This document shows positions 31,714 through 51,727 of a stretch of DNA of 64,000 bases, piece by piece (position 1 is the first letter of the stretch; every line of letters starts with the position of its first letter). The DNA comes from an uncultured Gammaproteobacteria bacterium (GTDB taxonomy: Bacteria > Patescibacteriota > Microgenomatia > Levybacterales > GWA1-39-11): assembly GCA_964425075.1 (NCBI GenBank), contig CAYRKM010000001.1, positions 266,484 to 330,483 on the forward strand, written 5' to 3'. Made by a program: the position numbers and the translations under genes. The notes under the pieces are model-generated. The model did not search any database and was not told the DNA's origin. It was given only the letters and a program-made list of their open reading frames with translations.

Positions 31714-32817
31714 ATGAAGGTAACTATACTAACAGAAATCATTGATATATATATTCCACTTATAAACAAAACCCTTCCAACACATTCCCAAGTACCCATA
31801 CTTTCAAACATACTTCTTGTTGCAAAAAAAGACGGATTAACTCTTAAAGCAACAGATTTAGAATTAGGAATAGAAATAAAAATACCCGCAAAAATAGAAG
31901 CAGAAGGCTCAGTTACCGTTCCAGGTAAAGAATTTTTGGAAGTAATTGCTTCTTTACCCAAAGATAAAATAACCCTCGAGCTTATTAAAGACACTTTGAC
32001 ACTTCAATGTAGAGCAAGCAAAGTGAGTTTTAATACTATTCCAATGGAGGAATTTCCGGAGCTTTACAAAAGTAGGGGGGAAGAGGTCGCTCGATTTGGA
32101 AAGGGTGAATTTATGGACATCTTTTCCTACCTAGTATTTGCGGTTTCCGCAGAAGAAACAAGGCCTCAGTTGACGGGTGTTTTTATAAACAAGAAAGACG
32201 ATAAAATAGACTTTGTTGCAACTGATGGATATAGGATGTCTGTTAAGACAATAAGTGGGGGAGAGAGGAAAAACATATCTCAAGGATTGATTATTTCAGT
32301 TAAGTTAATAAATGAGGTTATGGGACTAAAGAATGATAAGGGGGACGTAGTTTTAAGAGTTAATCAGCAAGAGAATCAGGTTTTTTTTGAACTTGGGGAT
32401 GTGTTGTTTGTGGGGAGAATGATAGAGGGCGGATTTCCTGATTATTCAGGAGTGCTTCCTAAAGAAAGCAAAACAATAATTACCGTTGATAGGGAAGAGT
32501 TGCTACAAAGTGTTAAATTAGCATCTGTTTTTGCAAAAGATCAAAGCAACGTTTTGACGATGGAAGCAAGAGGCCAAGCGCTGCATTTGACAACAAAAGC
32601 TTCTGGTGTAGGCGAGGGGGAGATGGTGGTTGATTGTGAAAAGAAAGGCGAAGATGTAAAAATTGCATTTAACGCCCGATTTCTTCAGGATTTACTAAGG
32701 ACAGTTGATGCAAAAACAATTACTTTGAAGTTGAATAGTGGACTTGAATCAGCCCTGTTTGAAATAAAAGAAAGCAATTTTAAGCATGTAATAATGCCTG
32801 TTCAGGTGGACAATTAA
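31714..32817 (+). CDS. dnaN: DNA polymerase III beta sliding clamp
   Basis: 367 aa, three-domain pattern, position directly after dnaA. Confidence 0.85.
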   Translation: MKVTILTEIIDIYIPLINKTLPTHSQVPILSNILLVAKKDGLTLKATDLELGIEIKIPAKIEAEGSVTVPGKEFLEVIASLPKDKITLELIKDTLTLQCRASKVSFNTIPMEEFPELYKSRGEEVARFGKGEFMDIFSYLVFAVSAEETRPQLTGVFINKKDDKIDFVATDGYRMSVKTISGGERKNISQGLIISVKLINEVMGLKNDKGDVVLRVNQQENQVFFELGDVLFVGRMIEGGFPDYSGVLPKESKTIITVDREELLQSVKLASVFAKDQSNVLTMEARGQALHLTTKASGVGEGEMVVDCEKKGEDVKIAFNARFLQDLLRTVDAKTITLKLNSGLESALFEIKESNFKHVIMPVQVDN

Positions 32818-33833
32818 AAGGCCGGTAGGTAAAGAAGAATGTTTTTTTCTCCGCTCGAGGTTTTTGCTTTCCCACTTAGTATAAAGATGGGAGAAAGTAT
32901 ATTTTTTATTTTGTCATCAAAATAGCCAAGGGAAACAAGAGTAATATTAATTGCCTCAACGGTTAAGGAAGGGTCTTCAAATTCCCCCAGCTTTACAACG
33001 GTTGCTTCTCCTCTTTGGGTTAGTGTTTTTACTTCTTCAAGTGTATGAATTGTCGTTAGTCCAATTGTGTCTAGAGTAACGTTGAAATATTCAATTTTTT
33101 GAACCTTCCCAGCATTAGTTATCCAAACCGCAAATTTTGCAGGTGTTCCAAGCTGGTAATAAAGAGGGATGTCTTGTGCCGTTTGGGTATAGAGAAGTTC
33201 ATAAATAATAGCGTTGTCAAGAGAGAGTGCTGGTAAAAGCTCGCCGGTTTCGCTTTCATATCCATTTATCTCAACAGAATTTAAGGAGACATTTTTAATT
33301 TTAAGTTTTTCAATCTCTTCCCTGGCAATTTTTTCAATTTGCTCAACCGGAAGCTTGTTGGGCGAGGAGGGAGAGGGCTCAGTATTCATATACTGAACAA
33401 ATCCAGAGGTAGGATTTAGGAGGAGTGTTTGGTTTTGACCTTTTGTCCACAAGAGGCTATTTCCAAGCTTAATTGGACTTTCTAAAAAAGAAAGGTTCTC
33501 GGCAAATTCAGCGCCAGAATTCGAGAGGGAGTGGGAAACTTTAATAGCAGGAATCTGTTGGGGGAAGGATAGGCCTTCTTGAAGATCAAAGGTGACAGGT
33601 GTAGTAGTAGATATACTCACTCCGTCAGCCTTGTTAAACGTGGGTTTGGGAGGATTGATGGCACCTGTTGGGTTGAGTGGCACCCTTGTTGGAACAGGAA
33701 ATGACACATTATTCCCAATTCCGTTATTTTGTCGCAAAAATATTAAAACTCCGGCGACGACAAGAAATGTTATCAAAAAAGCGAGAACTACAAGAATTCT
33801 TAATTTAAATGAAGTTAAAAAATTATTTTCCAT
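32814..33833 (-). CDS. Membrane-anchored extracytoplasmic hypothetical protein. First gene position of the T4SS-like cluster on the minus strand is 40057; this is the last
   Basis: N-terminal TM then 300-aa soluble region. 4-bp overlaps chain it to the M23 peptidase gene. Confidence 0.4.
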   Translation of the reverse strand: MENNFLTSFKLRILVVLAFLITFLVVAGVLIFLRQNNGIGNNVSFPVPTRVPLNPTGAINPPKPTFNKADGVSISTTTPVTFDLQEGLSFPQQIPAIKVSHSLSNSGAEFAENLSFLESPIKLGNSLLWTKGQNQTLLLNPTSGFVQYMNTEPSPSSPNKLPVEQIEKIAREEIEKLKIKNVSLNSVEINGYESETGELLPALSLDNAIIYELLYTQTAQDIPLYYQLGTPAKFAVWITNAGKVQKIEYFNVTLDTIGLTTIHTLEEVKTLTQRGEATVVKLGEFEDPSLTVEAINITLVSLGYFDDKIKNILSPIFILSGKAKTSSGEKNILLYLPAF

Positions 33834-33836
33834 ATT

Positions 33837-34436
33837 TTAGCAAGACTCTGATGAAACACTAGCTGGAGCACAACCAGCTCCATTGCAAGTAGCTGGAATA
33901 ATTGATTGCGGAACATTTGGTGGGGCAAGTCTTAATCCACGCAGCTCAAAGTGAAGATGGGGTCCAGAAACTCTTCCAGTGGCCCCCATGTAGCCAATAA
34001 GTTGCCCCTTTTTAACTTTTGCACCTTCACCAACAAGAATTGCTGACAAGTGGGCATAGTAAGCAAGTGTTGCTCCTACGCTTGTAGGCGAAACTTTTAT
34101 TAAGTTTCCATATCCCCCATCGCATACTCCTTTTCCGTCGCAATCAAACACTTTAGCTGTTCCATCAAGAGTGGAGTAGACTGGGGTTCCTGTGTTGTTT
34201 GCGATATCAACTGATTCTCCCCCTCCCTTTAATTGAATTTCTGCATGGCTGGATGATCCCAGTGGCCCTTGGCTTATGATGCCTGTTGTTGGCCAACAAC
34301 CAGCTGTGCCCGCTGGGGGATTGCCAATTTTTACGTGAATGGTATTGCTGTCTGTTTGATATTTTTGTTGTCCAAAAACAAGACTTACTGAAAAAAACAA
34401 AAACAAAATACCTATGACAATGCTGTATTTTTTCAT
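33837..34436 (-). CDS. M23-family (lysostaphin-like) metallopeptidase, secreted
   Basis: HxxxD and HLHFEL (HxH) zinc-ligand motifs; signal peptide. Confidence 0.75.
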   Translation of the reverse strand: MKKYSIVIGILFLFFSVSLVFGQQKYQTDSNTIHVKIGNPPAGTAGCWPTTGIISQGPLGSSSHAEIQLKGGGESVDIANNTGTPVYSTLDGTAKVFDCDGKGVCDGGYGNLIKVSPTSVGATLAYYAHLSAILVGEGAKVKKGQLIGYMGATGRVSGPHLHFELRGLRLAPPNVPQSIIPATCNGAGCAPASVSSESC

Positions 34437-34915
34437 CTATTACAAAAGCTAAGCTTAAATATTTGACCTGCCTCGTTTGGATTGATACTTGCAGTGGTTG
34501 AGATTTCAACGGGTAGATTGCAAGCCTCATTTTCGCTTATTTCAAGCCTTTCTAAAAATGCTCTTTCGGCCTTTTGCCTGTTCTCTTCAAAAGGCGAGGA
34601 CTTAATGCTAATTAGGAATTTATTAAAAGGCTTAAGGTAAATAAGTCTAAACTCAGAAGCTTCCTCCATCAGTGAGTCTCCTTGTGCGGTTAGCTGAACC
34701 GCAGAAGCGTAGGGGTTTTTGACACTTACCCCTGATACGTCAATTCTCTCACCTGTTGGAATGTTTCTTAGAAAAATTGGTACGAGGGTGGGTGTTGGAA
34801 AAGTTGTTACCTGGGGAGTTTGTCTTGAAAAGCGTGCAAGCATAAGAGACAAAAGAGCAAGTCCAGCAAGGATAGTTAGAATAATAAATAATATTAGTTT
34901 AAGATTTAATTTCAT
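34433..34915 (-). CDS. Membrane-anchored hypothetical protein
   Basis: N-terminal TM; translationally coupled (overlaps) with both neighbours. Confidence 0.4.
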   Translation of the reverse strand: MKLNLKLILFIILTILAGLALLSLMLARFSRQTPQVTTFPTPTLVPIFLRNIPTGERIDVSGVSVKNPYASAVQLTAQGDSLMEEASEFRLIYLKPFNKFLISIKSSPFEENRQKAERAFLERLEISENEACNLPVEISTTASINPNEAGQIFKLSFCNR

Positions 34916-36156
34916 AAAGTATTACTGCACGAAGAAATTATTCTGTTTGCCTCCGACCATGCTCCCCACAATGTCCAATTGGTGCCGTTTTGTGAGAGAG
35001 AAACTGCTTTTTGAATGTTTTGCGTAGTGTCTTTCATTTGTTGAGAGCAGACAAGTCTTTTATTTTCATCAAGCGGATTATCGCATGATTGCGCCCCCCA
35101 TTTCCCTTCGCCATATGCGCCTTCGCAATGCGCCACTAAGTTAATTTGAAAAAGACCGACGCTGTAGTCATTTGTATCACAGTTTGTGTTCATAGCAAAA
35201 GGGTCTCCGCCGCTTTCAAGCTTGCAAATTAAAGACGCTGTTGTCGCCTTAGCCTCATCTCCTCCAAAATATGGAAGCAAGTTATTAACTGAGCAATATC
35301 CCCCAGCTTCGTGTGGTTGCGTGCAAACATTGGAAGAAACCCCATTGCTGCTTAAAAGGGGGCCGGTTGTTCTTGCGCTTACTACATAGTCAAACTCCAC
35401 AGATGGAACAGTTGGGGTGAGGGTAAACTTTATTGTTGGATAATTTTCGCTTGAAGAAAGAGACCACTCAATAACACTTCCCGTCTGAGTGTAGTTGCCG
35501 CTTATTTGCTCAGGTTTTGTGTCCGGTGGAATTATCGCAAAAATTGTAATAGTGTTTCTTGGAATATTCCCAACGCTTTCATCATGAGAGATGGAAACAG
35601 TTATATTAACAGATGAGCCCTCTGGTAGGTTTGGTGGCGGTTCTGAAATTGTAAGCTTTAGTCCGGGAATATCAGGATCGGTTTTTTGGGCACCATTTGC
35701 TGGAGGGTTAGTGGTTGAGTCTTTGTCACTAAATGGGTTAGGAATTGAGGAGCCTCCTCCAAAAAAAAGCATATAAATAATAATAAAAATAAAAACCCCG
35801 AAAAGCGTCCACATCACTCCGGGGTTTACTATATATCTTGCGACATTAATAGCGGTCCGAATATTTTTAATGGTATTGCGAGCCGTTTGAAAATTGTCAA
35901 AAGCAGAGCGTTTTTTCTTTCTATTCTCTTCATTCCCTTCGCCTGAACCGTTTTGAGACGAGTCGGGGTGGCCGCCATGTCTTCCCTCCGGCGCATGACT
36001 CCCTCCAAATCTACCACGGAATTTGTTGATAGATTCCATTGGGTGTCGCGCTGCTTTGCCCAATCTGTATGCGCTATTCGCTCTATCAACTAGGCTACTT
36101 TTGGATTTTTGTTCCTGCTGTGCCTCAGCTTCGTCGTAGTCAACATCGTTTGCCAT
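34912..36156 (-). CDS. Membrane-anchored lytic transglycosylase (SLT/lysozyme-like domain; VirB1-like role inferred)
   Basis: C-terminal KLESGGDPFAMN...YSVGLFQIN matches the SLT ES...GLMQI motif. TM at about residues 95-120. Confidence 0.6.
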   Translation of the reverse strand: MANDVDYDEAEAQQEQKSKSSLVDRANSAYRLGKAARHPMESINKFRGRFGGSHAPEGRHGGHPDSSQNGSGEGNEENRKKKRSAFDNFQTARNTIKNIRTAINVARYIVNPGVMWTLFGVFIFIIIYMLFFGGGSSIPNPFSDKDSTTNPPANGAQKTDPDIPGLKLTISEPPPNLPEGSSVNITVSISHDESVGNIPRNTITIFAIIPPDTKPEQISGNYTQTGSVIEWSLSSSENYPTIKFTLTPTVPSVEFDYVVSARTTGPLLSSNGVSSNVCTQPHEAGGYCSVNNLLPYFGGDEAKATTASLICKLESGGDPFAMNTNCDTNDYSVGLFQINLVAHCEGAYGEGKWGAQSCDNPLDENKRLVCSQQMKDTTQNIQKAVSLSQNGTNWTLWGAWSEANRIISSCSNTL

Positions 36157-36162
36157 AGTCTA

Positions 36163-38283
36163 TTATTTTGATGGTAATGGGTTATTTGGGGCAGGAGCCG
36201 GATTTTTGGGCTTGAAATCAGTCATTTGTGGTTCGGGTGTTGGCTGATCTGTTGGCATAATTGGCTCAGACGGCGCTGGATTTTGTTGGGGCGTAGGCTC
36301 TAGAGCAGCAGGTTGTGGTGCCACCGGAGGCATTTGTGGCGCACTGGGAGATGGGGATGTCATTTGGGGTGCGGGTTGTTCAGGAATTGGGGGAGGGGGT
36401 GGTGGAGCGGAAGCAGTTCTTGCATCGAGTATGTCCTGGGGTTTTGATGTAATTAAGTCATATTCAAATTGAGATGAAACGAATTGTGCGGTTACATGAT
36501 TTTGCCCGGCAAAGAGTAGGCCTTCTCCAACCTGGGCAGTAAGAAGGTATTGCTTTTCTCCTTCTGATAGGTTTAGGGTTTTGGCCAGGGTTTCAACTTC
36601 TGAGGAGCCCTGTTTTAAAAGGATTTGGACTGACGAATTTGAAAGAATTGCTTTTCCGTAATCACTTGACAGAAAATCTTCAATGTCCTGAGTTAGTGTG
36701 GTAACACCAAGATAGTATTTTCGCGCTCTCTTTGCTATTCCCTGAAGGAACGCTGCTGAGTCAGGATAGCGCATCATATACCAGGCCTCATCAACTATTA
36801 AAAGTCTTTTTTTAAGTTTTGTTCTCACTCTATTCCACACAAAATCTAGGATAACGTGCATAGCAATGGGTCGAAGAACGTCCTCGAGTTGTTTTAGGGA
36901 AAAAACTGTAAGCTGGTTTTTAACATCATAATTAGTTTGGTGGTTAAATAGCCCCGAAAATCCTCCTTTTACATATTTTTCAAGTCGGAAAGCTAACTCT
37001 TTTGCTTCTGGCTCCTCCATGTTAAGCAAAGTTTTGTAAAGGTCTTCAAGAATTGGGGGCTCATTTTTATAGGTTGCAGGATCGGGTGTTATGCCTTTTT
37101 GCTTATAGGAAAGCACGATTGCTCTATCAAGCATTGCCTCTTGCGTTGCACTCATTTCTCCAAGCATGGTTTTTAAAAGTCCATGAATTGAAAGTATTTT
37201 GATACCAAGCTGGGCCTCGGTTGCCTCATCAGCAAGAAGGGCAAAGGGATTAATCTTAACTGCAGAATCTTTTGAAAAAGAAATGTATTCTCCGCCTAAG
37301 GATTTGCAAAGTGCGCTATATTCGTCTTCAGGATCAATTATCAAAACCTCAGTGTCAAACATCATTTGGCGCAACACCTCAAGTTTTACCAAAAAAGATT
37401 TTCCAGAACCAGACTTTCCAAACACTACAGAATTCGCATTCTCAAAGGAAAACCTATCAACAATAACAAGGGAATTATTCAAAGTATTGACCCCATATAG
37501 AATTCCTCCCGGCTGCGAAAGCTCATATGAGGTAAATGGAAAAGTTGAGGCAACAGAGGTCGTGTCCATATTTCGAGTTGAAAATAGTTTGTCTGTTCCC
37601 ATTGGAAGAGTGGTTTTAAATCCATCTTCCATCTGAAGAGTGGCGGGTTTTATAACGAGCAAGTTAGAAGCCAAGAGAGACATTAGTTCCTTTGAGCGTA
37701 AATTTAGATCATTAATTTCGTTTGAGGCAAGGGTAATGTATAGTCCAAATTGGAAAAATCTTTCAAGTCCACGCGCGAGCTCCTCTCTTAAGGCTATTGC
37801 GTCCTCTAGTGATGCACGAATTTTAGGATCTGCCTCAATTCCTTGTTTTTCATCAGATTCAATTGTTGCCTCCATCTCGGCAATTTTACGTCTAAGATTG
37901 GATAAAATATCTTTTGACTCAACTGGGTATAAAAACATTGAGATATTCATTGTTTCTTTATAGTCGATGAGAATAGAGAGCCAATTTGGAGAAACCTGGC
38001 GAGGATAGTCCACAACAAAAAAAGTGCGGTAGTATGTGTCTCCAACGCGAATATGTTTAAAATCAACTTCAACAGAGGAAGGGGCAATGATATCAACAAT
38101 TGAGACGGAGCCCTTTTTTAAAGTTTCAAGAGAAGAATTCATGTCAGGTTTTTTTGAAGAAGGTTTTGCCTGTGGTGCTTGGGGTGTTTGGGTGGGCGCA
38201 GTTGCGCTGTCAGGAGGTTGCGTTGGGACAGCTCCAGACCGTGTTGGATTTGGTTGTTCTACCTTTTTTTTCTTTCCAAACAT
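36163..38283 (-). CDS. virB4: VirB4/TrbE/CagE-family type IV secretion ATPase with Pro-rich C-terminal extension
   Basis: Walker A FGKSGSGKSF, Walker B LLIVDEAWYMM, TTLTQDIEDF, family-typical N-domain (VGDTYYRTFFVVDYP). Confidence 0.8.
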   Translation of the reverse strand: MFGKKKKVEQPNPTRSGAVPTQPPDSATAPTQTPQAPQAKPSSKKPDMNSSLETLKKGSVSIVDIIAPSSVEVDFKHIRVGDTYYRTFFVVDYPRQVSPNWLSILIDYKETMNISMFLYPVESKDILSNLRRKIAEMEATIESDEKQGIEADPKIRASLEDAIALREELARGLERFFQFGLYITLASNEINDLNLRSKELMSLLASNLLVIKPATLQMEDGFKTTLPMGTDKLFSTRNMDTTSVASTFPFTSYELSQPGGILYGVNTLNNSLVIVDRFSFENANSVVFGKSGSGKSFLVKLEVLRQMMFDTEVLIIDPEDEYSALCKSLGGEYISFSKDSAVKINPFALLADEATEAQLGIKILSIHGLLKTMLGEMSATQEAMLDRAIVLSYKQKGITPDPATYKNEPPILEDLYKTLLNMEEPEAKELAFRLEKYVKGGFSGLFNHQTNYDVKNQLTVFSLKQLEDVLRPIAMHVILDFVWNRVRTKLKKRLLIVDEAWYMMRYPDSAAFLQGIAKRARKYYLGVTTLTQDIEDFLSSDYGKAILSNSSVQILLKQGSSEVETLAKTLNLSEGEKQYLLTAQVGEGLLFAGQNHVTAQFVSSQFEYDLITSKPQDILDARTASAPPPPPPIPEQPAPQMTSPSPSAPQMPPVAPQPAALEPTPQQNPAPSEPIMPTDQPTPEPQMTDFKPKNPAPAPNNPLPSK

Positions 38284-38289
38284 ATTAAA

Positions 38290-38982
38290 TTAGACAATCA
38301 CATTTTTTATATCTTTTGAATCAAAGTCTATGTTGATGGTGTCATTATTTAATGTTTCGTAATAAAGCTTTATTAATTCTTCATGAGCAAGTGGTCTGGC
38401 GGAAAGGCCCATTCTTTCAATTTGCGTCATTATCATTGCCCTTTTTGTATTTATTCCTTCTTTTGCCTGTTGGGAGAAATAGCTCGTTGAAACATTGGGC
38501 TTTTTCTGATTTTTCGAAGCGTTAATGGCTCCTCCTTCAAGATATGAATAAGGAATTACAACATAGATTTTTTTATCCAACAGGCCTTCATTCTTCACAA
38601 GCTCTTCTATGAATTGACGATACATCCCTAGATGTTCTCTTAATTTTGTGCTTTGCATTGTTGTAAGGCGTTGGTCAAGCGTCTTAAGGTATGACTGCAT
38701 GTCAACGCGTTTTGAGATGATTACAATTTGAATTGAGAAGGAAAGAGAGTTAATCAGAGACATGTATCCATATATTCTTGCGTTTTGCTCTTCGGCCGAA
38801 AGAAGGAAGAAATTAACAGATGAGACTTCTAAGACAGCACAGGCAGTTTTGTTTTTGAAAAAAACTATATCATCCTCAATGTCGAGAATTTCCGTAAAGT
38901 CTTGGGTTGTAGAATGAACTTGTTGTTTTTTTGACATAATATTAGGCTGTAGCTTGTGGTTGAGTGTTTCCAAACAATTCAC
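38290..38982 (-). CDS. Hypothetical protein resembling the N-terminal (non-ATPase) region of VirB4-family proteins
   Basis: IEDDIVFFKNKTACAVLEVSSVNFFLLSAEEQ pattern, like VirB4/TrbE N-termini. Precedes virB4. Confidence 0.35.
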   Translation of the reverse strand: MNCLETLNHKLQPNIMSKKQQVHSTTQDFTEILDIEDDIVFFKNKTACAVLEVSSVNFFLLSAEEQNARIYGYMSLINSLSFSIQIVIISKRVDMQSYLKTLDQRLTTMQSTKLREHLGMYRQFIEELVKNEGLLDKKIYVVIPYSYLEGGAINASKNQKKPNVSTSYFSQQAKEGINTKRAMIMTQIERMGLSARPLAHEELIKLYYETLNNDTINIDFDSKDIKNVIV

Positions 38983-40268: not shown

Positions 40269-40601
40269 ATGGAGCCGTTAAAAGACGTGGTATTAAATGA
40301 TGTTGTGGACGCACTTATTTTGGCGTTAGAAAATGGTGTAATAAAAGAAGGAGACATCACTCCTATAGCTGACTATGTTTTGGGAAGAATGGATGATATT
40401 AAGAGTGAAATAGAGATGGATCAATTTCTATCTGAATTATCGACAAAATGGCCAATATTTTCTCATATCACTTCTGGTTTTCAAGCAGAAAATAAGGAGA
40501 AGGCAGACAGTGAGGTTGCCGAGGGTGTTCTAACTCTTGCCCAGCACGGAAAAATTGATGAAGCAATTTCGCTCGCAAAGACAGCAACGCAGACCCAATA
40601 A
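40269..40601 (+). CDS. Small acidic hypothetical protein
   Basis: 110-aa ORF, divergently transcribed from the T4SS-like operon. Confidence 0.35.
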   Translation: MEPLKDVVLNDVVDALILALENGVIKEGDITPIADYVLGRMDDIKSEIEMDQFLSELSTKWPIFSHITSGFQAENKEKADSEVAEGVLTLAQHGKIDEAISLAKTATQTQ

Positions 40602-43210: not shown

Positions 43211-43555
43211 TTATAAAGAAATGTTTAACAGGTCAATGCCTAAGACTGAGCTAAACAATCCAATTACAAAGAATGAAAGAAAAGCAATGATAAGGCCAAG
43301 AACAGAGAAGATTATGGTTTTTCTAGCACTTTCTACTTTTGTTTTATCCCCTCCTGAAGTAACCCACATAAATCCTCCATACACTATAAAGCCTAAGGCA
43401 ATAAAAACCACTGCTACAAGCAAAAGCATAATAATCCACTCAATAAGTTGTCCTCCGCTGGTTGATAATCCTCCTGTTGGAACACCTTCTGGTGCTTGGA
43501 TTTCTATTGAGCCATTATTTCCGGGAACTGTGAGTTGAGATAATAGTTTTGTCAT
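43211..43555 (-). CDS. VirB2/TrbC-like pilin paralog 3
   Basis: VTSGGDKTKVESARKTIIFSVLGLIIAFLSFF block. Confidence 0.5.
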   Translation of the reverse strand: MTKLLSQLTVPGNNGSIEIQAPEGVPTGGLSTSGGQLIEWIIMLLLVAVVFIALGFIVYGGFMWVTSGGDKTKVESARKTIIFSVLGLIIAFLSFFVIGLFSSVLGIDLLNISL

Positions 43556-45030
43556 TTAGTATTTGTTTGATTGCTCTTTTGTCCGGGTAGCGGATTGTCG
43601 TTAAATCCAGGGATCTTTAGGACGTCTCCTGCTATAACTGATAGTAGCACAAGTGAGAAAATAATAAAAAGCAGTCCAACAATTGCTGAGGTAATTCTTT
43701 CTCTTTGTGCCTGAATTACTTCTTTGTCTCCCCGAGAGAGCAGTAGCCTATATCCTGCATAGAGGATAAGAAGCATTGCCCCAATTGCTGCAAAGCTTAA
43801 TACTATCTGAAAAAGCTTTGTTATAAAGCCGACAGGGTTTAGGGGAATTTTTCCAATCGCAGTGTCAAGCTCATTGCATTTGAGTACACCGGGGTTTGGC
43901 TTACCTTCTTCGCAGGGGATTATGCTTCCTTTTGCCGCTCCTATTTCATCAAGTAAATTCTGTAACTTCTTTGTGTCGCTTCCACCAGGGTCAATTATTT
44001 CTTTACATTCAGGAGTAGCTTTTTTGTCAAAAACGGAACATTCATATTTGAGAAAAGTGTACCCACCACTACAATCGTCTCCAACTGGTTTGTCTTCATT
44101 TACTTGCTCGTTAACTTTTATAACATATCTTCCTGCAATAACGCCTTTCCCATCATCCTCACTATCTTTATATGGAAATTCAACAACGTATTGGTCGGAG
44201 GGCGATGTGAGTCGGAAGTTCTTGTTTTTACTATCGTCTTGGGGCAAGCATCTTTCCTGCATGTATCCGCCTGTTCCCTGCATGACAATTTGAAAGTTAT
44301 TTGCCTTTTGCTTTCCATCTTTAGAAAGACGGTCCTGGTGTAGTTCTACCCTGAATTTTTCAGGAGACTTATTATTGAGTGGGGTGATTTTAACTATGGG
44401 TTCATGATGATTTACAAAAAAGCCTGCTTGACTACGAACAACCCAATTTTCTCCTTGCCTTTCATAAGCAGTTATGTAATAATTTTTCCCTGCCCAAAAC
44501 CAAACCTTGTCTTCAGGGGTGCACTCTTGTTTAAGGTTACTTTCTCCTGCACCACAGACCGTAATAGAGCCGTCAGCATCAAGCTTTGTTAGTTTGCTTC
44601 CAACCACATTATCAGCGGGTAGGTCAATAAACTTTTGAGCTAAGTATCCACCAATTGGGTTGAATCCTCCACCCACTAAAGTTCCAACAGCAAATAGTCC
44701 AACATTTTCAATAATCGAATCTTTTAGGCAATAGTCCCCTCTTAAGCAGACTTGAACCTTGCTTGCATCAACTCCAGGGAAAACAATCTTGACCTTTTTG
44801 ACTGCGTCATCAATACTCTCCAAGCGGTCTGGGTCTTTATAGTCGGGAGGGGAGATAATAGTTGTTGTAAAGCTACTGTCTTCGGAATATTCAGTTGAGA
44901 CATCTCCGAGGTTTTTATCTAGGGGATCGGGTCCAAGTTGTATTTCCTGAGCGAATATAGAGCCAGAATAAACTGAAAGGAATAGTGTGACTATGACAAC
45001 AAAACCAAAAAATCCAAATAATTTTTTCAT
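43552..45030 (-). CDS. Large secreted protein with about 400-aa Cys-rich extracellular domain fused to a C-terminal pilin-like module (candidate pilus tip or adhesin subunit)
   Basis: Signal peptide. Many Cys. C-terminal LSRGDKEVIQAQRERITSAIVGLLFIIFSLV pilin block identical in pattern to the three small paralogs. Confidence 0.45.
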   Translation of the reverse strand: MKKLFGFFGFVVIVTLFLSVYSGSIFAQEIQLGPDPLDKNLGDVSTEYSEDSSFTTTIISPPDYKDPDRLESIDDAVKKVKIVFPGVDASKVQVCLRGDYCLKDSIIENVGLFAVGTLVGGGFNPIGGYLAQKFIDLPADNVVGSKLTKLDADGSITVCGAGESNLKQECTPEDKVWFWAGKNYYITAYERQGENWVVRSQAGFFVNHHEPIVKITPLNNKSPEKFRVELHQDRLSKDGKQKANNFQIVMQGTGGYMQERCLPQDDSKNKNFRLTSPSDQYVVEFPYKDSEDDGKGVIAGRYVIKVNEQVNEDKPVGDDCSGGYTFLKYECSVFDKKATPECKEIIDPGGSDTKKLQNLLDEIGAAKGSIIPCEEGKPNPGVLKCNELDTAIGKIPLNPVGFITKLFQIVLSFAAIGAMLLILYAGYRLLLSRGDKEVIQAQRERITSAIVGLLFIIFSLVLLSVIAGDVLKIPGFNDNPLPGQKSNQTNTK

Positions 45031-45106
45031 ACTATCTTAATCATAACTTAAATTGAGGAAATTGTTAAATTGTCACTTTTTTAGTAATTAGAACTTAGTC
45101 ACTAAG

Positions 45107-45173
45107 CTTACTTTTCGTCAGGAAAGCAAGGGGAGATATTAATCACTCAACTTACTTTTCGTCAGGAAAGCAA
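45107..45173. repeat. Two 23-bp perfect direct repeats CTTACTTTTCGTCAGGAAAGCAA (45107-45129, 45151-45173; about 32 bp with flanking similarity) in the promoter region of the pilin operon
   Basis: Seen directly. 44-bp spacing. Lies between the pilin-fusion gene start (45030) and the winged-helix regulator gene. Confidence 0.7.
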
Positions 45174-45182: not shown

Positions 45183-46571
45183 TTAGTCGCTTAATTTATA
45201 TCCTTTTCCTTTTATCGTGTGAATAAAGTGAGGATTGGTAGGGTCTTGTTCTATTTTCTTTCTTAGTCTATAAAAAATCTGATCAAGAGCTTGATCTGTG
45301 ACTCCTTCTTGGGTTTTGTTATCACTCCAAATAGCATTAATTATCTCGTCTTTTGAACAAAGTTTTTCTTTATTTGCAATTAAAAACTTAAGCAGTTTGA
45401 ATTCTGAGGGTGAAAGCTTGTCCGATATTGAGGCATCTCCAACTCGTATATCATTTTTCTCACTGTCATAAGTAAGTTTATCTTTACTTGAAACCGATGT
45501 TGTCTTGATAAATTCTGAAAGTAGGGGAATGGATGGGGCATTATTTTTTATAAGTTCACTATTTGTTAAAAAGGAAGAAGCATTTGTTATCGGTGAATTT
45601 TTTAGTTCAATTTGCTCTGAAGGGAGAAGGGCATTCCAAATTTCAGATAATGCCCCCTGAATGGTTGGTCTTTTCAATAAAAAGTCACGAAGGCTTGAGG
45701 GTGTTTCGTCTTCGCTAATAAGCGCCTCATAAGAGAGCTTGGTGAGTTTTGCATGTCCTCCGGTAAGATTAAGAATTTCCTTTTTTGTATTTTCAGGAAT
45801 TGTTTTATGAGCCGCCTTTTCAATATATGAAAGCCTAAAGTCCATCCCAATAGGGTCAAAAAGAGAGACAAATACGTTGTTCCCCGCGACTATATCATGA
45901 AAGTCGGAAAGCAATTCTGGCTCACATACATCCTCAAGTGGTCGAGTAAGCGCAAATACGCTCCCAAATCTATATTTGGCATGATTTCGAAGGACTCTGA
46001 GGTTAGTAAAAAATTGAGAGTCAATAGTTGGAAGTAAAGAGTCGAATCTATCAAATAGCAAATGGACTGTAAGTTTCTTTTCTATTGATAGGTAATCAAG
46101 GGCTTGTTTTAATGATTGAAATAAAACTAACTCATCCTGCATGCTCACCCCATTTTTCAGAAATTCGTTTACTTTTTTTGATTCATCAATCAGGCGTCTT
46201 TCTCCAAGAGAGAAGGCAAGAGACAGTAGGATAAATTTAGTTATGTCAAAAAGTGGGCGATTTTTAACCTCGGTTGAGTCAATATATACAAAATGCATTA
46301 TTTTTTCGTATTCTCCAAAATGTTTTGCTCTCACATTTAGGTTGTAGGCTAGTAGACGCAGGATATTGCTTTTTCCAACCCCTGGAAGTCCAACGACCTG
46401 AGAAGAAAGACCCTTTCCTATAAAAGGAGCAAGAGCACTAAGCTCCTTTTCGCGCGTTCCTTCAGGATACAAGCTTTCAAAATATTTAAGGGGTTCAAAT
46501 TGCATGGTATCTCCAATATACCACAGTAAAAGGGAGCTGTGAGGTGGTTGTAAGCTAAATATCAAGTTCAA
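45183..46571 (-). CDS. Putative transcriptional regulator: N-terminal P-loop NTPase domain plus C-terminal OmpR/PhoB-type winged-helix DNA-binding domain
   Basis: Walker A GLPGVGKSNILRLL. C-terminal ...KLLKFLIANKEKLCSKDEIINAIWSDNK...ALDQIFYRLRKKIE...IHTIKGKGYKL typical trans_reg_C. Confidence 0.6.
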   Translation of the reverse strand: MNLIFSLQPPHSSLLLWYIGDTMQFEPLKYFESLYPEGTREKELSALAPFIGKGLSSQVVGLPGVGKSNILRLLAYNLNVRAKHFGEYEKIMHFVYIDSTEVKNRPLFDITKFILLSLAFSLGERRLIDESKKVNEFLKNGVSMQDELVLFQSLKQALDYLSIEKKLTVHLLFDRFDSLLPTIDSQFFTNLRVLRNHAKYRFGSVFALTRPLEDVCEPELLSDFHDIVAGNNVFVSLFDPIGMDFRLSYIEKAAHKTIPENTKKEILNLTGGHAKLTKLSYEALISEDETPSSLRDFLLKRPTIQGALSEIWNALLPSEQIELKNSPITNASSFLTNSELIKNNAPSIPLLSEFIKTTSVSSKDKLTYDSEKNDIRVGDASISDKLSPSEFKLLKFLIANKEKLCSKDEIINAIWSDNKTQEGVTDQALDQIFYRLRKKIEQDPTNPHFIHTIKGKGYKLSD

Positions 46572-46598
46572 ATAAAGGCATCAAATTACAATAACGGC

Positions 46599-49500
46599 AT
46601 GGTAAATGAATTGACAGGCAACATTCAAATGCCCTATCCTGGAGGTAGGACCATAGCAGGTTCTCAAAACCAACCACACGAATCCTACAGGCTAAATGAG
46701 CCCAAAGGACGAGCTGTAGAAAAGAGAAATATGGATGATATTGTCGAGAAAGATAAAAAAACCCCAACTGTAAACCCAGAAGAAGAGAAAAAGAAAACGG
46801 ATGAGATCCTCGATAAGGAAAGAAGAGAGAGGCTAAAAGCAAAATCTAGCAAATTCACAAGAGAAGAGGAGGAGGAAATCCGCAGAGCACTTGAGGATGA
46901 GAGAGAGAAGGGAAGAAATAATTTAACCGAGAAACAGAAAAGCCTTTTGGAGATGGCAAGGGCAATAAGTACTGGTGGAGGAGCAAGTGATGACTATTTT
47001 GAACATTTTCCAGCTGAAAAATTTAAGAACCCTTCTCTTAAAGCTCTTGCAGATAATTTAAAATCTCTCGGCCAAAATAGCCAGATAACCGAGGAAAAAC
47101 TACAAGAAGCCGTAAAGCTTGTGCACGATATGGTTAGAGCGAGCGTTATTCAGGATGATGAAGGGGCGGAGTTCATAGAGGAGGTCTCAAGAGCAAGAAC
47201 TGCTCAGGCTACTGGTCAACCTTACGAGCCCTCTATGGAAACCGGAGGTGCTGGTGGGCAAGAGCCTCCGAGAACAGGTCGTACCGCAGCAGGCGGTCAG
47301 GAAAATCGAGGAAGAAATAGTCAGGAGGGAGATGGGCATTGGTCAACAATAAACGTAGATAAATTTCAAGAAGACACTCCAATACGAAGAATTGCAGAAC
47401 AGATAAGACAAGCAGGTTTTAACCGCGCAAGCGTAAACCAAGAAACTATTAGGTCGTGGGCAAATGAAGCATCAGCCGCAGTTCAGAGGGGAGAAGATAC
47501 AGAGGAGCAGGAAAGAATACTTAGGGATGAAATACAGGGAATTATGCAAGAACTGCAAAATAAAGAGAGTCTTGTAAATACGCCCAAATCAATTCAAGCG
47601 CTATGTAGATGGATTATTGAAAAGGAGGGGGCGCAGTGGGGACCGGGAGGGGTAAATGAGCTTATTGATGGGGAAAACAACTTTAAGCAAGAGAATTTTC
47701 TCAAGTGGGTACGTGAGAGAATGCTTTTCTTCCATGGTTTTAGTCCGGATGATGAGCTTAATTTATTGGGTCAAATTGGTGTAGAAACAGAATTTAGGAC
47801 AATTGGTCTTGGAACGATGATCTCAAATAAAAATCAATACTTTAGAGACGAGAATAGAATAGACCCTGCTACTGGACGACCATATATTTATGATGAATTT
47901 ATTGAAGAGGTAGTAAATGAAGTATTTTTGTTTAACCAATCAAGAAATTATGACGCAAATTACCGCTTTACAATGTGGAGCGACAAAGATTTACCTGGGC
48001 TTTTAAGTAAAATTCACCAGCGCAGTGTTTTTACCACTTCTGATCAAATGAAAAAAATCTTCAAGCTTTCTGCTGACTATACGGAAGATGAAGCAGCAAG
48101 AGATACAAAGGTTGGAGATTCGATTAGAATGGCTTATGAGGTCTACTATAGTATGTCAGACCTTGAAGAATTAAAAGAGGTGTTGGGTGAAGATTCGCTA
48201 TTCTTTACCAGAAAAGGATTTGAGGATGCATACCGCCTTTCTCAAAACAAATCTGCTGACGAACCTATCCCCCAAAATTATAGTGATTTATTTGATTCAC
48301 TTTTCGATGCCTCCGGCAAGCCAATTCCGCATGACAGAAAAGATGAGAATGGAAATAACATAGAGGGCTTTATGAGTTTTATTAATTTATTTAATGAAAC
48401 GGGAAAATTGCAATCAACAGTTTCTCTCGTTAGAGAGGCTGTGCGCCTTGCAATATCTGAGAGATACGGGCTTGAGAATGGGCTTAATGATTCGGGGGAG
48501 GCACGCAGTGTTAGGAGGAAAAACCTTGAATATGCAGAATTGTGGGCATATTCTATGGCTCGTTGGACAGGTGCTGGAGCACGAAATGATACTGGTGCTA
48601 TTGGATATGATGCTCAAACCAAATTCCAGCGCTTTCAGGAATACAGGCTTCGTCAGGCAAGAGCTGTGAGAGGTGGGGCTTTTGGTAATGAGTATGACCT
48701 ACCTGTTATAAAAGATTTGACACTCGATTTCTTTAATGGAATTTTTGTTGAAAAAGAGGTGGGTGAAGCTCGTGATTTTACGCCTTTTGAAATCTTTAAA
48801 CAACTTGATGGTATTGATAAGCAAATTGCTGCTGTCCGTCGAAATAGAGGTGATAATGATTTAAATGAAGCAGAAAAGGGTCAAATTCTCCAGCTTCTTC
48901 AAACAAAAGAAGAGGCATATAATCGTTTTAAATTCAAGCAATTTACCCAACTTGATTATGCCTCAAATCACATAAATCGTGCATATCAGGTATTCGAGTG
49001 GCTTACTGGGGCAAATGAAATACAAATTGATCAAATCGTTAAGCACGAGCCTTTTAGAGGACTTGTGTTTGACAGGGCAAAGTTTGAAGAGCAAGTAAAG
49101 GAAAACTTTATAAAACCCATTCGATATGCATTCAATACATATTCAAACATAGATTACTCTAAAAAAATGAGAGTTCAGGATAGAAAGGCATCTCGAGAGC
49201 AAAAAAGACCAGTATATAAAGAGGTCACGATGGCAGAGGCTATGTTTGGTCCTGCAGTTTTGGAGGATTTTTACAAAAAAGATGAGAATGGGAAAAGGGT
49301 AATTGATGAAGAAAAATTGAGAAAAGATAGAGGGCTTTTATATAAAAGAGTAATTCGTTCGATCCTTGCAGCACACATAAAGTCTCACAGAGAGCGTTTT
49401 AGTGGATATTCAAAAATGGATTGGGCGCAGATGGAAAAATTTTATGAGGCGTTAGAAAGCATCAGAGAGATTGAGATAGCAGATGATGAAGAGGGACTAA

Positions 49501-49673
49501 CTGCCAAGGAGGGGTTCTTTACGGAGGAGGATATCAAATGGATGAGAAAAGCAAGTGGAACAGGAAAACTTAGAATGCTTCTAACAGATGTTACCCCAAG
49601 TGTTGGTGTAGGTATAGCGGGAGGATTCTTTAAGGGCCTAAAGGACTTTACAGAGGAGATATTTGACGATTAG
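46599..49673 (+). CDS. Large (about 1000 aa) soluble hypothetical protein, highly charged. True start probably an internal Met near 46733
   Basis: Long uninterrupted ORF with strong coding character; no Walker or other motif recognised. Confidence 0.4.
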   Translation: MVNELTGNIQMPYPGGRTIAGSQNQPHESYRLNEPKGRAVEKRNMDDIVEKDKKTPTVNPEEEKKKTDEILDKERRERLKAKSSKFTREEEEEIRRALEDEREKGRNNLTEKQKSLLEMARAISTGGGASDDYFEHFPAEKFKNPSLKALADNLKSLGQNSQITEEKLQEAVKLVHDMVRASVIQDDEGAEFIEEVSRARTAQATGQPYEPSMETGGAGGQEPPRTGRTAAGGQENRGRNSQEGDGHWSTINVDKFQEDTPIRRIAEQIRQAGFNRASVNQETIRSWANEASAAVQRGEDTEEQERILRDEIQGIMQELQNKESLVNTPKSIQALCRWIIEKEGAQWGPGGVNELIDGENNFKQENFLKWVRERMLFFHGFSPDDELNLLGQIGVETEFRTIGLGTMISNKNQYFRDENRIDPATGRPYIYDEFIEEVVNEVFLFNQSRNYDANYRFTMWSDKDLPGLLSKIHQRSVFTTSDQMKKIFKLSADYTEDEAARDTKVGDSIRMAYEVYYSMSDLEELKEVLGEDSLFFTRKGFEDAYRLSQNKSADEPIPQNYSDLFDSLFDASGKPIPHDRKDENGNNIEGFMSFINLFNETGKLQSTVSLVREAVRLAISERYGLENGLNDSGEARSVRRKNLEYAELWAYSMARWTGAGARNDTGAIGYDAQTKFQRFQEYRLRQARAVRGGAFGNEYDLPVIKDLTLDFFNGIFVEKEVGEARDFTPFEIFKQLDGIDKQIAAVRRNRGDNDLNEAEKGQILQLLQTKEEAYNRFKFKQFTQLDYASNHINRAYQVFEWLTGANEIQIDQIVKHEPFRGLVFDRAKFEEQVKENFIKPIRYAFNTYSNIDYSKKMRVQDRKASREQKRPVYKEVTMAEAMFGPAVLEDFYKKDENGKRVIDEEKLRKDRGLLYKRVIRSILAAHIKSHRERFSGYSKMDWAQMEKFYEALESIREIEIADDEEGLTAKEGFFTEEDIKWMRKASGTGKLRMLLTDVTPSVGVGIAGGFFKGLKDFTEEIFDD

Positions 49674-49696
49674 AGTTAGAAACTTGCTAAGAATTT

Positions 49697-51727
49697 CTAA
49701 CTACTATTATTTCCATCTCTCAAATCCTCAACTGCATCTTGAGCTCCAAGAGCTGCATCTCTTGCCTCATTAGCTGCTACTTCTGTTCGTTGCGCTGCTC
49801 TTCCTGCTTCTGGATTTGCATTGTCTGCGTCATCCGATGGCCCCGTTGCAACCTCTGAACCAGTTGCACCTCCTCCTGAGGGTGCTGGTTCTCTTCCTGC
49901 GGGTGCTGCGCCTGCAGGGTTATTTCCACTGTCTTTTCCCTTATTTCTTCTCAACGGATTTTTTATCCAGGGAATGTGTTCATATCCACCTTTTCCATCG
50001 TTCTTTTCAGGATCCCAACGTTTTGACTTAAAGCTGCCCCCAAATACAGCAGCTGTAAGTCTGCCGCCCCTTTCCTCAGCAATTCTTGTTAACAACTTTG
50101 GATTACCCATTGCGTCCTCACCCCAAACCTTGTTCCAACCACCTTTGATAGGTGAAGTTATGAGTTTTTGACCTGAGCCCAATGCTCTTCCGGCAGCTCC
50201 TGCAATCTTAAGGTCAGGAGCTTTTAGAGCTTGTTTTGTTATATTTACAGCCTCAGGCATGATAAGTATCATTCCAAGTCCAAGTATTGATGCAATAGCC
50301 CCAACTCCATTGTCTCCAGGATCTCCTACAAGAGGGGGGATAAATGTGGCCTGGCCTGGAACCACGTTGTCCTGAACTGCTTTTCCAATTAGGAATAAAA
50401 CAATAACAACAGGAAAGGCTGCAAGATTTGCTGTAACGCTTCTAAGCCAGGGACCAACGCCTCCACCGGCTCCAGGAATAACTCCTTTCAATATCCAAAA
50501 TGGGGCAAAAATAACATCAAGAATGATAAACACATAGGCTTTAATAAGCATGAACCAAACCCGAAGAAGAGCAGAAAGAATTGCGATTGCTATTATAAGG
50601 TAGGCAATAATTAGAGCAATAAGGCCGAAGACTTTGGTCCCAAAAGCATAACCAGCCGCCCCCATTATTGGTCCGAGAATCCAATTTGTGCTAAAACCAG
50701 CTATTTCAGGCGCCATATTTGCAGCAGTCATTCCAGCGATAATACCAGTTACGATTCTTGCTAGCTGTTCTCCAATTCCACCTTCAAAGAGTGATCCTAA
50801 AACGTTTGCTATTCCTTTTGCGGCCGGAGTCGCAATATTATTTATCCCGCCCAATCCCCCGACGGCATTAACTGGATTGGTGTCAATATTTGTAATAGTT
50901 GTAAGACCCTGACTATGGAAGAGTTGGATAACAAGATAAATTGAAACATACATCATGTCAATCAAAAATCCGACGATAGCATAGGAAAACGTGATAAGAA
51001 TGAGGGCAATAACAATTTTTGGAATTTGGTTTTGGATACTCATAACAGTTCTAGCGTCAATATTTATACGAAACATTATTCCCAAACCAAGCAGGATAAA
51101 AACTAAAACAAACAATAAATAAACGAGATTTCTAAAAGTTTCCCAAATTTTAAGAACCGGAGTAAGGCCTTTAAATCCTATTCCTTGCCCAAATCCTGTT
51201 TGTGAAGCTTTTGCAGCATCAAGACATGCTCCCATCGATTCAGGAGGAGTGCCTAGGCATTGCTCGGTTGGGGTTGCGGCATATGAATTACGTGTTATCC
51301 CAAAATTTGATGCGACGTATTTTCCATATTCAACTGAGGAAACAGGTATATTATAGGTAGACCCAATAAGATTTCCGGAAAGAGTTAATAGTCCTCCCGT
51401 GCCATTTTCTACATATCCTACCTTTCTTGTTGTTGGGTCAATTCCAAGACATTTACCATTGGTTGAAAGAGGATCGTATCCTGTTAAAAAGCAAGATGCT
51501 GTTGCTAGGATGTTTATAAATGTAGTTTGAGTATAGGTATTAATATTTTGAGGAACATTTGGATTTGTGTTTAGAGGCAATGACTGAGGGGAGGCAATGT
51601 TTGAAGTTTGAGCTGAAACATTTCCGGTAAAAATAAAAACACCTAAAAAGAAAAAGACAGATAGAAGTGCGATCTTTGCTTTTTGAGAGAATACTTTAGT
51701 TTTCCATTTAGAGCAGTTCATTTTCAT
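49697..51727 (-). CDS. VirB6/TrbL-like polytopic membrane protein with Gly/Ala/Pro-rich C-terminal tail
   Basis: Signal peptide, about 250-aa periplasmic region, then more than 8 TM helices, then GGSFKSKRWD...GAAPAGREPAPSGGGATG tail, an architecture typical of TrbL/VirB6. Assignment by architecture only. Confidence 0.45.
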   Translation of the reverse strand: MKMNCSKWKTKVFSQKAKIALLSVFFFLGVFIFTGNVSAQTSNIASPQSLPLNTNPNVPQNINTYTQTTFINILATASCFLTGYDPLSTNGKCLGIDPTTRKVGYVENGTGGLLTLSGNLIGSTYNIPVSSVEYGKYVASNFGITRNSYAATPTEQCLGTPPESMGACLDAAKASQTGFGQGIGFKGLTPVLKIWETFRNLVYLLFVLVFILLGLGIMFRINIDARTVMSIQNQIPKIVIALILITFSYAIVGFLIDMMYVSIYLVIQLFHSQGLTTITNIDTNPVNAVGGLGGINNIATPAAKGIANVLGSLFEGGIGEQLARIVTGIIAGMTAANMAPEIAGFSTNWILGPIMGAAGYAFGTKVFGLIALIIAYLIIAIAILSALLRVWFMLIKAYVFIILDVIFAPFWILKGVIPGAGGGVGPWLRSVTANLAAFPVVIVLFLIGKAVQDNVVPGQATFIPPLVGDPGDNGVGAIASILGLGMILIMPEAVNITKQALKAPDLKIAGAAGRALGSGQKLITSPIKGGWNKVWGEDAMGNPKLLTRIAEERGGRLTAAVFGGSFKSKRWDPEKNDGKGGYEHIPWIKNPLRRNKGKDSGNNPAGAAPAGREPAPSGGGATGSEVATGPSDDADNANPEAGRAAQRTEVAANEARDAALGAQDAVEDLRDGNNSS

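Follow-up and report, generated by a model that had tools for sequence, protein, structure and literature searches.

The window analyzed here (the whole stretch, 64,000 nucleotides [nt]) belongs to a genome of the Levybacteria, a candidate phyla radiation (CPR) lineage of the class Microgenomatia, and positions 32814-51727 of it hold a type IV secretion or pilus gene cluster that adjoins dnaN and dnaA. The cluster is made up of a seven-gene minus-strand operon (40057 down to 32814, here the core operon), a plus-strand gene pair, a second minus-strand operon (46571 down to 42436), the plus-strand gene g1024, and a convergent gene for a protein of 676 amino acids (aa), g676 (Table 1). A previous reading of this DNA from its letters, here called the sequence-only reading, had named open reading frames (ORFs) that all occur in the ORF listing where that reading placed them, with two changes to its layout: it had counted eight consecutive genes in the core operon, which actually has seven, and it had put the locus about 0.1 kb from dnaN, whereas the last gene of the operon and dnaN overlap at their stop codons by 4 nt. 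Neighboring genes of the core operon are separated by 3-6 nt or overlap by 4 nt, and scans for promoters and terminators returned sites no more numerous than in shuffled sequence.

Table 1. Genes of the type IV secretion locus and the adjoining replication genes (window positions), with the basis for each assignment. TM, transmembrane segment
Feature	Position	Strand	Basis
dnaA	30246..31583	+	Bac_DnaA E=5e-65; marks origin region
dnaN	31714..32817	+	DNA_pol3_beta domains 1-3; convergent with core operon
g339, bitopic, last gene of core operon	32814..33833	-	TM 13-31, Pro-rich linker, ~270-aa ectodomain
M23 peptidase (peptidoglycan endopeptidase), membrane-anchored or secreted	33837..34436	-	Peptidase_M23 E=1.5e-22
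g160, small bitopic protein	34433..34915	-	TM 7-25
VirB1-like bitopic lytic transglycosylase	34912..36156	-	SLT_3 E=2.5e-9, residues 301-397
VirB4-family ATPase without the usual N-terminal domain	36163..38283	-	P-loop_TraG E=4e-35, AAA_10; NF045971
TrsD/TraC-like protein (detached VirB4 N-terminal domain), 230 aa	38290..38982	-	NF045975, NF041427
PrgI/VirB3-like protein, 2 TM	38942..40057	-	PrgI PF12666 E=3.9e-6, 27.7 bits (cut-off 27), residues 5-83
g110, small protein, first of divergent pair	40269..40601	+	no Pfam, NCBIfam or PHROG match
g607, charged protein with single C-terminal TM	40605..42428	+	TM 568-586 only
VirB2-like pilin paralog 1, 99 aa	42436..42735	-	PF18895 T4SS_pilin E=7.5e-11, above cut-off; 2 TM
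VirB2-like pilin paralog 2, 136 aa, signal peptide	42749..43159	-	PF18895 E=5.5e-11, above cut-off; 2 TM
VirB2-like pilin paralog 3, 114 aa	43211..43555	-	PF18895 E=8.6e-4, below cut-off; aligns over full pilin domain
pil492: signal peptide, ~380-aa ectodomain, C-terminal VirB2-like domain	43552..45030	-	PF18895 E=1.8e-5, residues 401-466, below cut-off
P-loop NTPase and OmpR/PhoB-type winged-helix regulator without receiver domain	45183..46571	-	Trans_reg_C E=6e-20; weak AAA_22
g1024, 1024 aa, no signal peptide or TM	46599..49673	+	unannotated family linked to type IV secretion
g676, VirB6-like polytopic membrane protein, 676 aa	49697..51727	-	fold comparison

The clearest mark of a type IV secretion system (T4SS) is the VirB4-family ATPase. 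It scores 423 bits against NCBIfam model NF045971 (conju_CD1110, cut-off 325), covering positions 172-732 of the 752 in the profile, and its Walker A (GKSGSGKS) and Walker B (LLIVDEAW) motifs are intact in the translation, so that the ATPase named by the sequence-only reading stands. The CD1110 model gives the best score among the NCBIfam models, ahead of TraC-F (211 bits) and VirB4_CagE (138 bits), and the nearest plasmid homologues are monoderm proteins of the CD1110 family, all from Bacillota or Actinomycetota, at 31-37% identity. The TrsD-like ORF beside it matches positions 84-283 of NF045975 (VirB4_plasma, the mycoplasma VirB4 model; E=1.3e-10), and the ATPase covers positions 287-890 of the same profile. 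As the two ORFs cover complementary parts of one profile, VirB4 is divided here between two genes, in line with the N-domain that had been proposed for the smaller ORF. The TrsD-like ORF also matches NF041427 (positions 9-200 of 201, E=3e-7, below the curated cut-off), and its homologues in other loci carry the TraC-like domain PF26593.

The first gene of the core operon had been described both as VirB3-like and as a component without a recognizable family; the second description falls, since the protein matches PrgI just above the cut-off, and the first is borne out by this match together with a TM hairpin (residues 26-44 and 50-68). The protein has a Pro-rich linker, and its C-terminus resembles a CarboxypepD_reg-like beta-sandwich (E=1.6e-6, below cut-off), a fusion that recurs in two related loci (L083 and L086). 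Both wall hydrolases recognized by the earlier reading have significant domain matches and share the operon of VirB4: the SLT_3 protein has a cytoplasmic N-terminal region, a TM at residues 114-132, and its catalytic domain at the C-terminus, and the M23 peptidase has an N-terminal hydrophobic segment at residues 4-22.

The two remaining proteins of the core operon, g339 and g160, match no family in Pfam, NCBIfam, or PHROG, as expected from the earlier reading, which had listed them and g607 as having no recognizable family. Iterative searches with hidden Markov models (HMMs) found g339 homologues in 24 loci of Levybacteria and other Microgenomatia, 20 of them full-length and almost always the last gene before dnaN, and g160 homologues at the same position in 23 loci. 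A profile search of the PDB returned no relative of g160 and, for both proteins, no sequence match to VirB8, TraM, or TcpC. A DotF match of g339 in that search (E=0.004) covers the TM and Pro-rich segment alone and was treated as compositional, and an hhalign comparison of g339 with g160 aligned just a 24-residue helix, which is not evidence for a shared domain. Based on its N-terminal TM and ectodomain, a topology that g160 shares, g339 is a candidate for a VirB8-like role.

The second minus-strand operon encodes four VirB2-like pilin domains, as the sequence-only reading had proposed, two scoring above and two below the PF18895 cut-off. Each domain consists of two hydrophobic helices with a common TSGGDK loop motif; identity to paralog 1 is 25-33%, with paralog 2 at 33%, and related loci hold such domains in abundance (116 ORFs in 34 loci). 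The largest of the four proteins, pil492, carries its pilin domain behind an ectodomain with six invariant cysteines (C159, C170, C261, C320, C373, and C385). In the pil492 family, PF18895 is found in 17 of 18 members, no Pfam domain is found in the ectodomain of any, and one homologue matches TrbC (PF04956), as does one pilin of L083. It is conceivable from this architecture that pil492 is a pilus-borne adhesin or tip subunit, for which it is a candidate.

Heading the pilin operon is the predicted regulator, in which a Walker A motif (GLPGVGKS) and a winged-helix domain agree with the NTPase and winged-helix protein seen earlier; NCBIfam response-regulator DNA-binding domains match its C-terminus only. 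Its position is conserved in L081-L083 and L086, and the distance from it to the pil492 homologue downstream is 5-60 bp in relatives. In the window, the spacer from the regulator stop to the pil492 start is 152 bp long and contains two tandem 40-nt direct repeats (45090-45173; 88% identical, period 44). The repeat was considered as an operator of the regulator; it is lacking in the relatives, where the two genes are 5-60 bp apart, and is therefore taken as specific to this genome, and no such role is claimed.

The divergent pair between the two operons is less readily classified. Homologues of g110 occur at the same position in 22 loci and those of g607 in 17 loci, including a 610-aa equivalent in L081. 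No Pfam or NCBIfam family matches g607, which is probably a coiled-coil cytoplasmic protein anchored by its tail.

At the far end of the locus, g676 is predicted to have a signal peptide, an ectodomain of ~170 aa, six TMs, and a disordered C-terminal tail. Searches against Pfam, NCBIfam, PHROGs, and PDB profiles gave no match, and none of its 432 database homologues has a Pfam domain; fold comparison was the one approach that returned a relative. With an AlphaFold model built from an alignment of 59 sequences (pLDDT 71), the five best Foldseek matches include stalk and inner membrane complex chains of the R388 T4SS (TrwJ/VirB5-TrwI/VirB6), the best fold matches being TrwI/VirB6 and DotA. For the top three, the Foldseek probability is 0.84-0.93 at E ~0.05-0.5 with low TM-scores, and sequence identity to TrwI is 9-15%. 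We accept g676 as VirB6-like at the level of predicted fold. Of the VirB6/TrbL-like assignment made earlier, the polytopic character and the VirB6 relationship thus stand on topology and fold, and HMM searches add no match.

The 1024-aa protein between the regulator and g676 had been called an orphan. Exhaustive HMMER searches instead place g1024 in a family of at least 298 representative clusters (50% identity) at E<=1e-3, 161 of them at E<=1e-30, whereas a word-indexed search had recovered just 7 homologues. Most members have a length of 620-1650 aa, and it is chiefly residues ~300-1022 that are conserved; in this core, R, D, N, K, Y, and H are nearly invariant at many positions, among them those of the block yAe..A..m.RW.GA.ArND..a.g.DA..K. 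This core has no Pfam match in 51 members, and g1024 has none in NCBIfam or PHROG. An AlphaFold (AF2) model from 51 sequences is of good quality (pLDDT 85.4, pTM 0.72, 724 residues at or above 90), for which global Foldseek found no credible PDB fold match (best full-length alignment probability 0.08), and a PDB profile search gave low-complexity matches only.

The genomic context of g1024 was looked up for five distant members. In all five, a convergent gene for a VirB6-like polytopic protein of 508-652 aa follows, directly or past one small ORF; four have a Trans_reg_C regulator and pilin genes nearby, the regulator being directly adjacent and divergent in three, and the fifth (L085) has the convergent partner only. 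PrgI is present in three of the five, two of which also have TraC-like and VirB4 genes. The family is not universal, since no homologue was detected in L015, L066, or L069, in which the VirB6-like gene lies close upstream of the regulator, and since a nonhomologous protein takes its place in L053. In that locus, on a contig labeled Saccharimonadales, a 1448-aa protein (4330-8676) fills the g1024 slot, lying near the regulator on the other strand and converging on the VirB6-like gene; it was considered as a g1024 homologue and rejected, with an hhalign probability of 0.8%, so that the slot is conserved and the sequence is not. The true start of g1024 is likely M45 (46731), the first conserved Met of the family. 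The longest-ORF rule has probably also mis-set the starts of the regulator, likely the ATG at 46505, and of the TrsD-like gene, likely the ATG at 38937, 4 nt past the stop of the PrgI gene.

The position of the locus is as characteristic as its content. Cumulative GC skew reaches its minimum at ~31-32 kb of the window, and perfect DnaA boxes are present at 30130 and 31487, with no significant enrichment of DnaA boxes across the window (26 observed, 18 expected). Without such enrichment, a replication origin next to the T4SS locus is plausible mainly from dnaA-dnaN and the GC skew. With an origin at 31-32 kb, rightward replication would meet transcription of the core operon head-on; 32814-40057 is accordingly on the lagging strand directly beside the inferred origin. 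The same orientation, with the core operon convergent on dnaN, is found in 66 of 80 related loci and likewise in the gene table of the T4SS of Candidatus Southlakia epibionticum ML1 (Wang et al. 2023, PMC10633639).

These related loci come from a VirB4 scan of a genome collection, which gave 359 relatives, of which 80 loci with 53-90% VirB4 identity were kept and searched by tblastn and iterative HMM. Informative titles among the 80 are almost all Patescibacteria metagenome-assembled genomes (MAGs), and about half of the titles are generic or evidently wrong; those reading "uncultured Gammaproteobacteria" are evidently placeholders. The closest relatives with informative titles (71-90% identity) are Candidatus Levybacteria/Levyibacteriota, and those at 53-64% include MAGs of Beckwith-, Woese-, Curtiss-, Shapiro-, and Gottesmanbacteria, all Microgenomatia. 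The synteny that the sequence-only reading had suggested looking for in other Patescibacteria is extensive: the order PrgI-TrsD-VirB4 recurs in 73-74 of the 80 loci (TrsD directly upstream of virB4 in 74, PrgI in 73), and dnaN/dnaA lie convergent downstream of virB4 in 64-66. The full order in Levybacteria is regulator, pil492, three pilins, (g607, g110), PrgI, TrsD, VirB4, a variable set of hydrolases and bitopic proteins, and dnaN. As the same order and the same dnaN-dnaA junction are kept across relatives whose VirB4 proteins are 53-90% identical, the comparison supports a fixed, vertically inherited chromosomal feature over a mobile island.

A conjugative origin was weighed against this. 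An ordinary or decaying integrative conjugative element (ICE), with its relaxase, VirD4, and integrase outside the window, would account for a VirB4 family that is typical of Firmicutes ICEs and plasmids, and a few Patescibacteria genomes do have relaxases according to a recent survey (Quinonero-Coronel et al. 2025, PMC12102498). Pfam scans that took in essentially all ORFs of at least 90 aa found no VirD4/TcpA, VirB11, relaxase, or integrase domain in the 64-kb window, as the sequence-only reading had anticipated, and no second VirB4/FtsK-like ATPase; ARAGORN found no tRNA there, only a transfer-messenger RNA (tmRNA). The locus is bounded by dnaN on one side and nrdR and ribonucleotide reductase (RNR) genes on the other, and gene order and junctions between these two ends are the same in dozens of Levybacteria and other Microgenomatia. 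GC content is just 2-4 points above that of the flanks, and the rest of the window consists of housekeeping and miscellaneous chromosomal genes (among them dnaG, rpoD, msrAB, truB, nrdR, class II RNR, smpB, and a comF-like gene). VirB4 identity falls from 71-90% in genomes titled Levybacteria to 53-64% in those titled as other Microgenomatia, a title-based grouping that is consistent with vertical descent. Synteny and the absence of boundaries led us to reject the ICE, which we regard as very improbable. The earlier view of a chromosomally fixed, T4SS-derived apparatus rather than a conjugative element is thus upheld by the relatives, by synteny with dnaN-dnaA, and by the missing relaxase, type IV coupling protein (T4CP), integrase, and tRNA site.

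When these results are taken together, we consider it probable that the locus encodes a chromosomal, vertically inherited T4SS of the Patescibacteria type, derived from monoderm machinery of mating-pair formation class FATA (MPF-FATA), which is nonconjugative and serves macromolecule traffic on contact with a host. In such a machine, the split VirB4 (TrsD-like N-domain and ATPase) would dock at the membrane through the PrgI/VirB3-like hairpin and the VirB6-like protein and would energize assembly on this VirB3/VirB6 platform, and the SLT and M23 hydrolases would open the cell wall locally. The three small VirB2-like pilins and pil492 could then be extracted from the membrane and polymerized to form a host-contacting tube or pilus on the cell surface, with the P-loop/winged-helix protein, co-transcribed with the pilins, probably controlling their expression. 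Since pilin N-termini point outward in VirB2-type pili, the pil492 ectodomain would decorate or cap the pilus.

As to what such a machine might move, we lean slightly and tentatively, by analogy, toward an import function, with nucleic acids or other host material as cargo. The leaning follows from the precedent of the archaeal Ced/Ted importer and from the nucleotide auxotrophy of the phylum, which is unable to make nucleotides. Export of proteins into or onto the host bacterium, as by the VirB and Dot systems of pathogens, is a nearly equal alternative, itself doubtful, with adhesion alone and conjugation both less likely. Here g1024 and g607 would be the substrates: neither has a Sec signal and both are encoded within the locus on the opposite strand, the nonhomologous 1448-aa protein held by L053 between the regulator and VirB6-like gene is what might be expected of cargo with fast turnover, and effector delivery has been speculated upon before (PMC11665869 and PMC10633639). 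Against such a role, no T4CP, the usual substrate receptor, is found in the window, the g1024 core is strongly conserved and enzyme-like over 298 clusters, and the hydrophobic tails of g1024 and g607 would fit membrane-associated machine parts equally. The T4SS core could also have been reduced to a pilus-assembly motor for host attachment with no transfer of substrate. The multi-pilin array, a Cys-rich ectodomain pilin as candidate adhesin, and the lack of a T4CP or relaxase in the window would all suit this, yet Patescibacteria already have type IV pili for adhesion and motility (PMC12102498, PMC11665869, and PMC12857230), and VirB6 and VirB3 channel parts with two wall hydrolases exceed what an adhesin fiber needs, even if VirB pilus biogenesis requires them. 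We consider attachment alone improbable.

Returning to a nonconjugative T4SS for macromolecule traffic, several points weigh against it or parts of it. The VirB6 assignment comes from fold comparison, in which TM-scores were low and the model had a pLDDT of 71; the TrsD match and half of the four pilin domains score below curated cut-offs; and no VirB8-like component was identified at the locus by sequence or profile comparison. A VirD4 homologue may lie elsewhere in the ~835-kb genome, as T4CP genes distal to the locus are reported for many Patescibacteria in PMC12102498. The direction of transport, and even pilus formation, are argued by analogy. Classical DNA uptake through ComEC would not be the essential role, since in Southlakia the ComEC competence route is dispensable and the T4SS is essential.

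It could further be speculated that g1024 is a dedicated T4SS partner of Microgenomatia, either a new cytoplasmic coupling or substrate-processing enzyme that replaces the T4CP/relaxase pair or the main translocated effector, and that pil492-type pilins are pilus-borne adhesins, a class of T4SS subunit undescribed elsewhere; we regard this combination as rather unlikely. The g1024 family and the ectodomain-bearing pilin are concrete targets for structural and genetic work.

Some features of the surroundings are recorded here in their own right. Directly beyond the locus (51923-56573) are a DUF5667 gene, nrdR, a class II (B12-type) RNR that has a TSCPD domain, and a gene for cobalamin adenosyltransferase, so that the T4SS has nucleotide-reduction genes as neighbors; L081 keeps the DUF5667-nrdR-RNR block in synteny. 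Two tandem 23-nt repeats (51797-51842), each with the palindrome CTGAGCTCAG, occupy part of the divergent promoter region that separates the genes for the VirB6-like and DUF5667 proteins; they could be an operator. Farther along are a ComF-like phosphoribosyltransferase with a double zinc ribbon (58225-58944), the tmRNA (58950-59309) with the tag AKSQFSGLGFKPNFAFA, and smpB (59350-59790). On the other side, 11346-13579 and 18562-21395 encode a CopC/cupredoxin protein, a secreted GH16 glucanase bearing a Big_7 domain, and a tandem pair of sulfatases; for a reduced CPR genome, this set of extracytoplasmic enzymes is notable. The MsrB ORF (26715-27269) overlaps the truB ORF (27137-27895) by 133 nt, and its start is probably further downstream, as the SelR domain begins only at residue 60. 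Three ORFs (56714-58087, 60076-61977, and 62207-62854; 457, 633, and 215 aa) lack significant Pfam matches; the sole hit is a weak one of the 215-aa protein to bPH_2.

Comparison with known systems places the locus within a recognized group. Outside the phylum, it resembles the monoderm MPF-FATA systems (Prg/Pcf of pCF10, Trs of pGO1, and the CD1110 family of C. difficile CTn2), with which it shares a CD1110-family VirB4, a TrsD-like protein, PrgI, bifunctional wall hydrolases, and the lack of an outer-membrane core. Those systems are borne on plasmids or ICEs, with relaxase, T4CP, and surface adhesins and without a VirB2 pilin, whereas the locus in the window has pilins, has no relaxase or T4CP in the window, and is fixed in the chromosome. 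To the MPF-T systems (R388 Trw and Agrobacterium VirB) and Legionella Dot/Icm it is linked by VirB2-type pilins and by the predicted fold of g676, similar to TrwI/VirB6 and DotA, and it differs from them in having no VirB7, VirB9, VirB10 outer-membrane core, VirB5, VirB11, or VirD4. The archaeal Ced/Ted machines reportedly combine VirB2-like pilins with a polytopic VirB6-like partner, lack a relaxase, and import rather than export DNA. They are chromosomal, like the present locus, and powered by a VirB4-family ATPase, and Beltran et al. 2023 (PMC9905601) describe the importer as homologous to conjugation machinery; unlike the present locus, they are archaeal and UV induced, and their ATPase is distant, the window VirB4 matching CedB weakly (E=1e-10) and being far closer to the bacterial CD1110 family.

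Within the Patescibacteria, the T4SS is treated as an established newcomer to the superfamily, of unknown function, in a 2025 T4SS review (PMC12857230) and a PNAS perspective (PMC11665869). In Southlakia it spans SEML1_0006-0019, a few genes past dnaA, dnaN, and recF (PMC10633639), and comprises hydrolases of the lysozyme type, VirB4, a TrsD-like protein, PrgI, polytopic VirB6-like proteins, an NTF2-like protein, and six PF18895 pilins; neither a coupling protein nor a relaxase was recognized, and nearly all of the T4SS genes are essential in co-culture. The likeness extends to the dnaA-dnaN location with a convergent core operon, the order of hydrolases, VirB4, TrsD-like protein, and PrgI, a VirB6-like polytopic protein, and a divergent PF18895 pilin array, again with no recognized coupling protein or relaxase. 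Southlakia differs in belonging to the Saccharimonadia rather than the Microgenomatia, in the six pilins on the opposite strand, in two polytopic proteins of ~1000 aa, an NTF2-like (VirB8-like) protein, and a 1113-aa hypothetical protein beside VirB4, and in the absence of a P-loop/winged-helix regulator or g110/g607 pair from the annotation, in a version that leaves out SEML1_0007 and parts of several entries. Essentiality is shown for Southlakia only.

The survey of 2,474 patescibacterial virB4 genes (PMC12102498) recovers a monophyletic clade allied to MPF-FATA, with TrsD and PrgI widespread, VirB2 arrays of 2-11 genes at ~25% identity that are abundant in Microgenomatia, relaxases nearly absent, and no PrgB-like adhesins found; dnaA/dnaN are enriched near virB4 in Microgenomatia and Paceibacteria, which is read there as a gene-dosage effect. 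The MPF-FATA-like VirB4, TrsD, PrgI, pilin array, lack of a relaxase, and dnaA/dnaN proximity of the present locus all conform to this description. By contrast, the same survey reports VirB6 as scarce and VirB3 as poorly linked to VirB4 in Microgenomatia, whereas at the window locus and its relatives both appear to be present and adjacent. The two are taken as having diverged too far for detection by the published HMMs rather than as missing. Neither the regulator nor the g1024 family came up in the passages of the survey that were searched.

In conclusion, as judged from its VirB4 affinity, TrsD, pilin array, and location at the origin, the locus is a T4SS of the Patescibacteria clade derived from MPF-FATA. 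As the T4SS, its lack of a relaxase, and its proximity to the origin have all been published (PMC10633639 and PMC12102498), this finding is already known, and the window offers a clean Levybacteria example of it, with the residual interest in uncharacterized accessory proteins. What is added here is that VirB4 is split and that a dedicated P-loop/winged-helix regulator heads the pilin operon; that, on modeling, VirB6 appears to be present, if divergent in sequence, in Microgenomatia, with VirB3 adjacent to VirB4; and that a pilin with a large Cys-rich and putatively disulfide-rich ectodomain, the g1024 family, and g607/g110 seem to travel with the locus. The patescibacterial T4SS is essential in the sole species tested and conserved across a phylum that forms a large share of bacterial diversity, and its cargo and direction are tied to how ultrasmall epibionts feed on their hosts.

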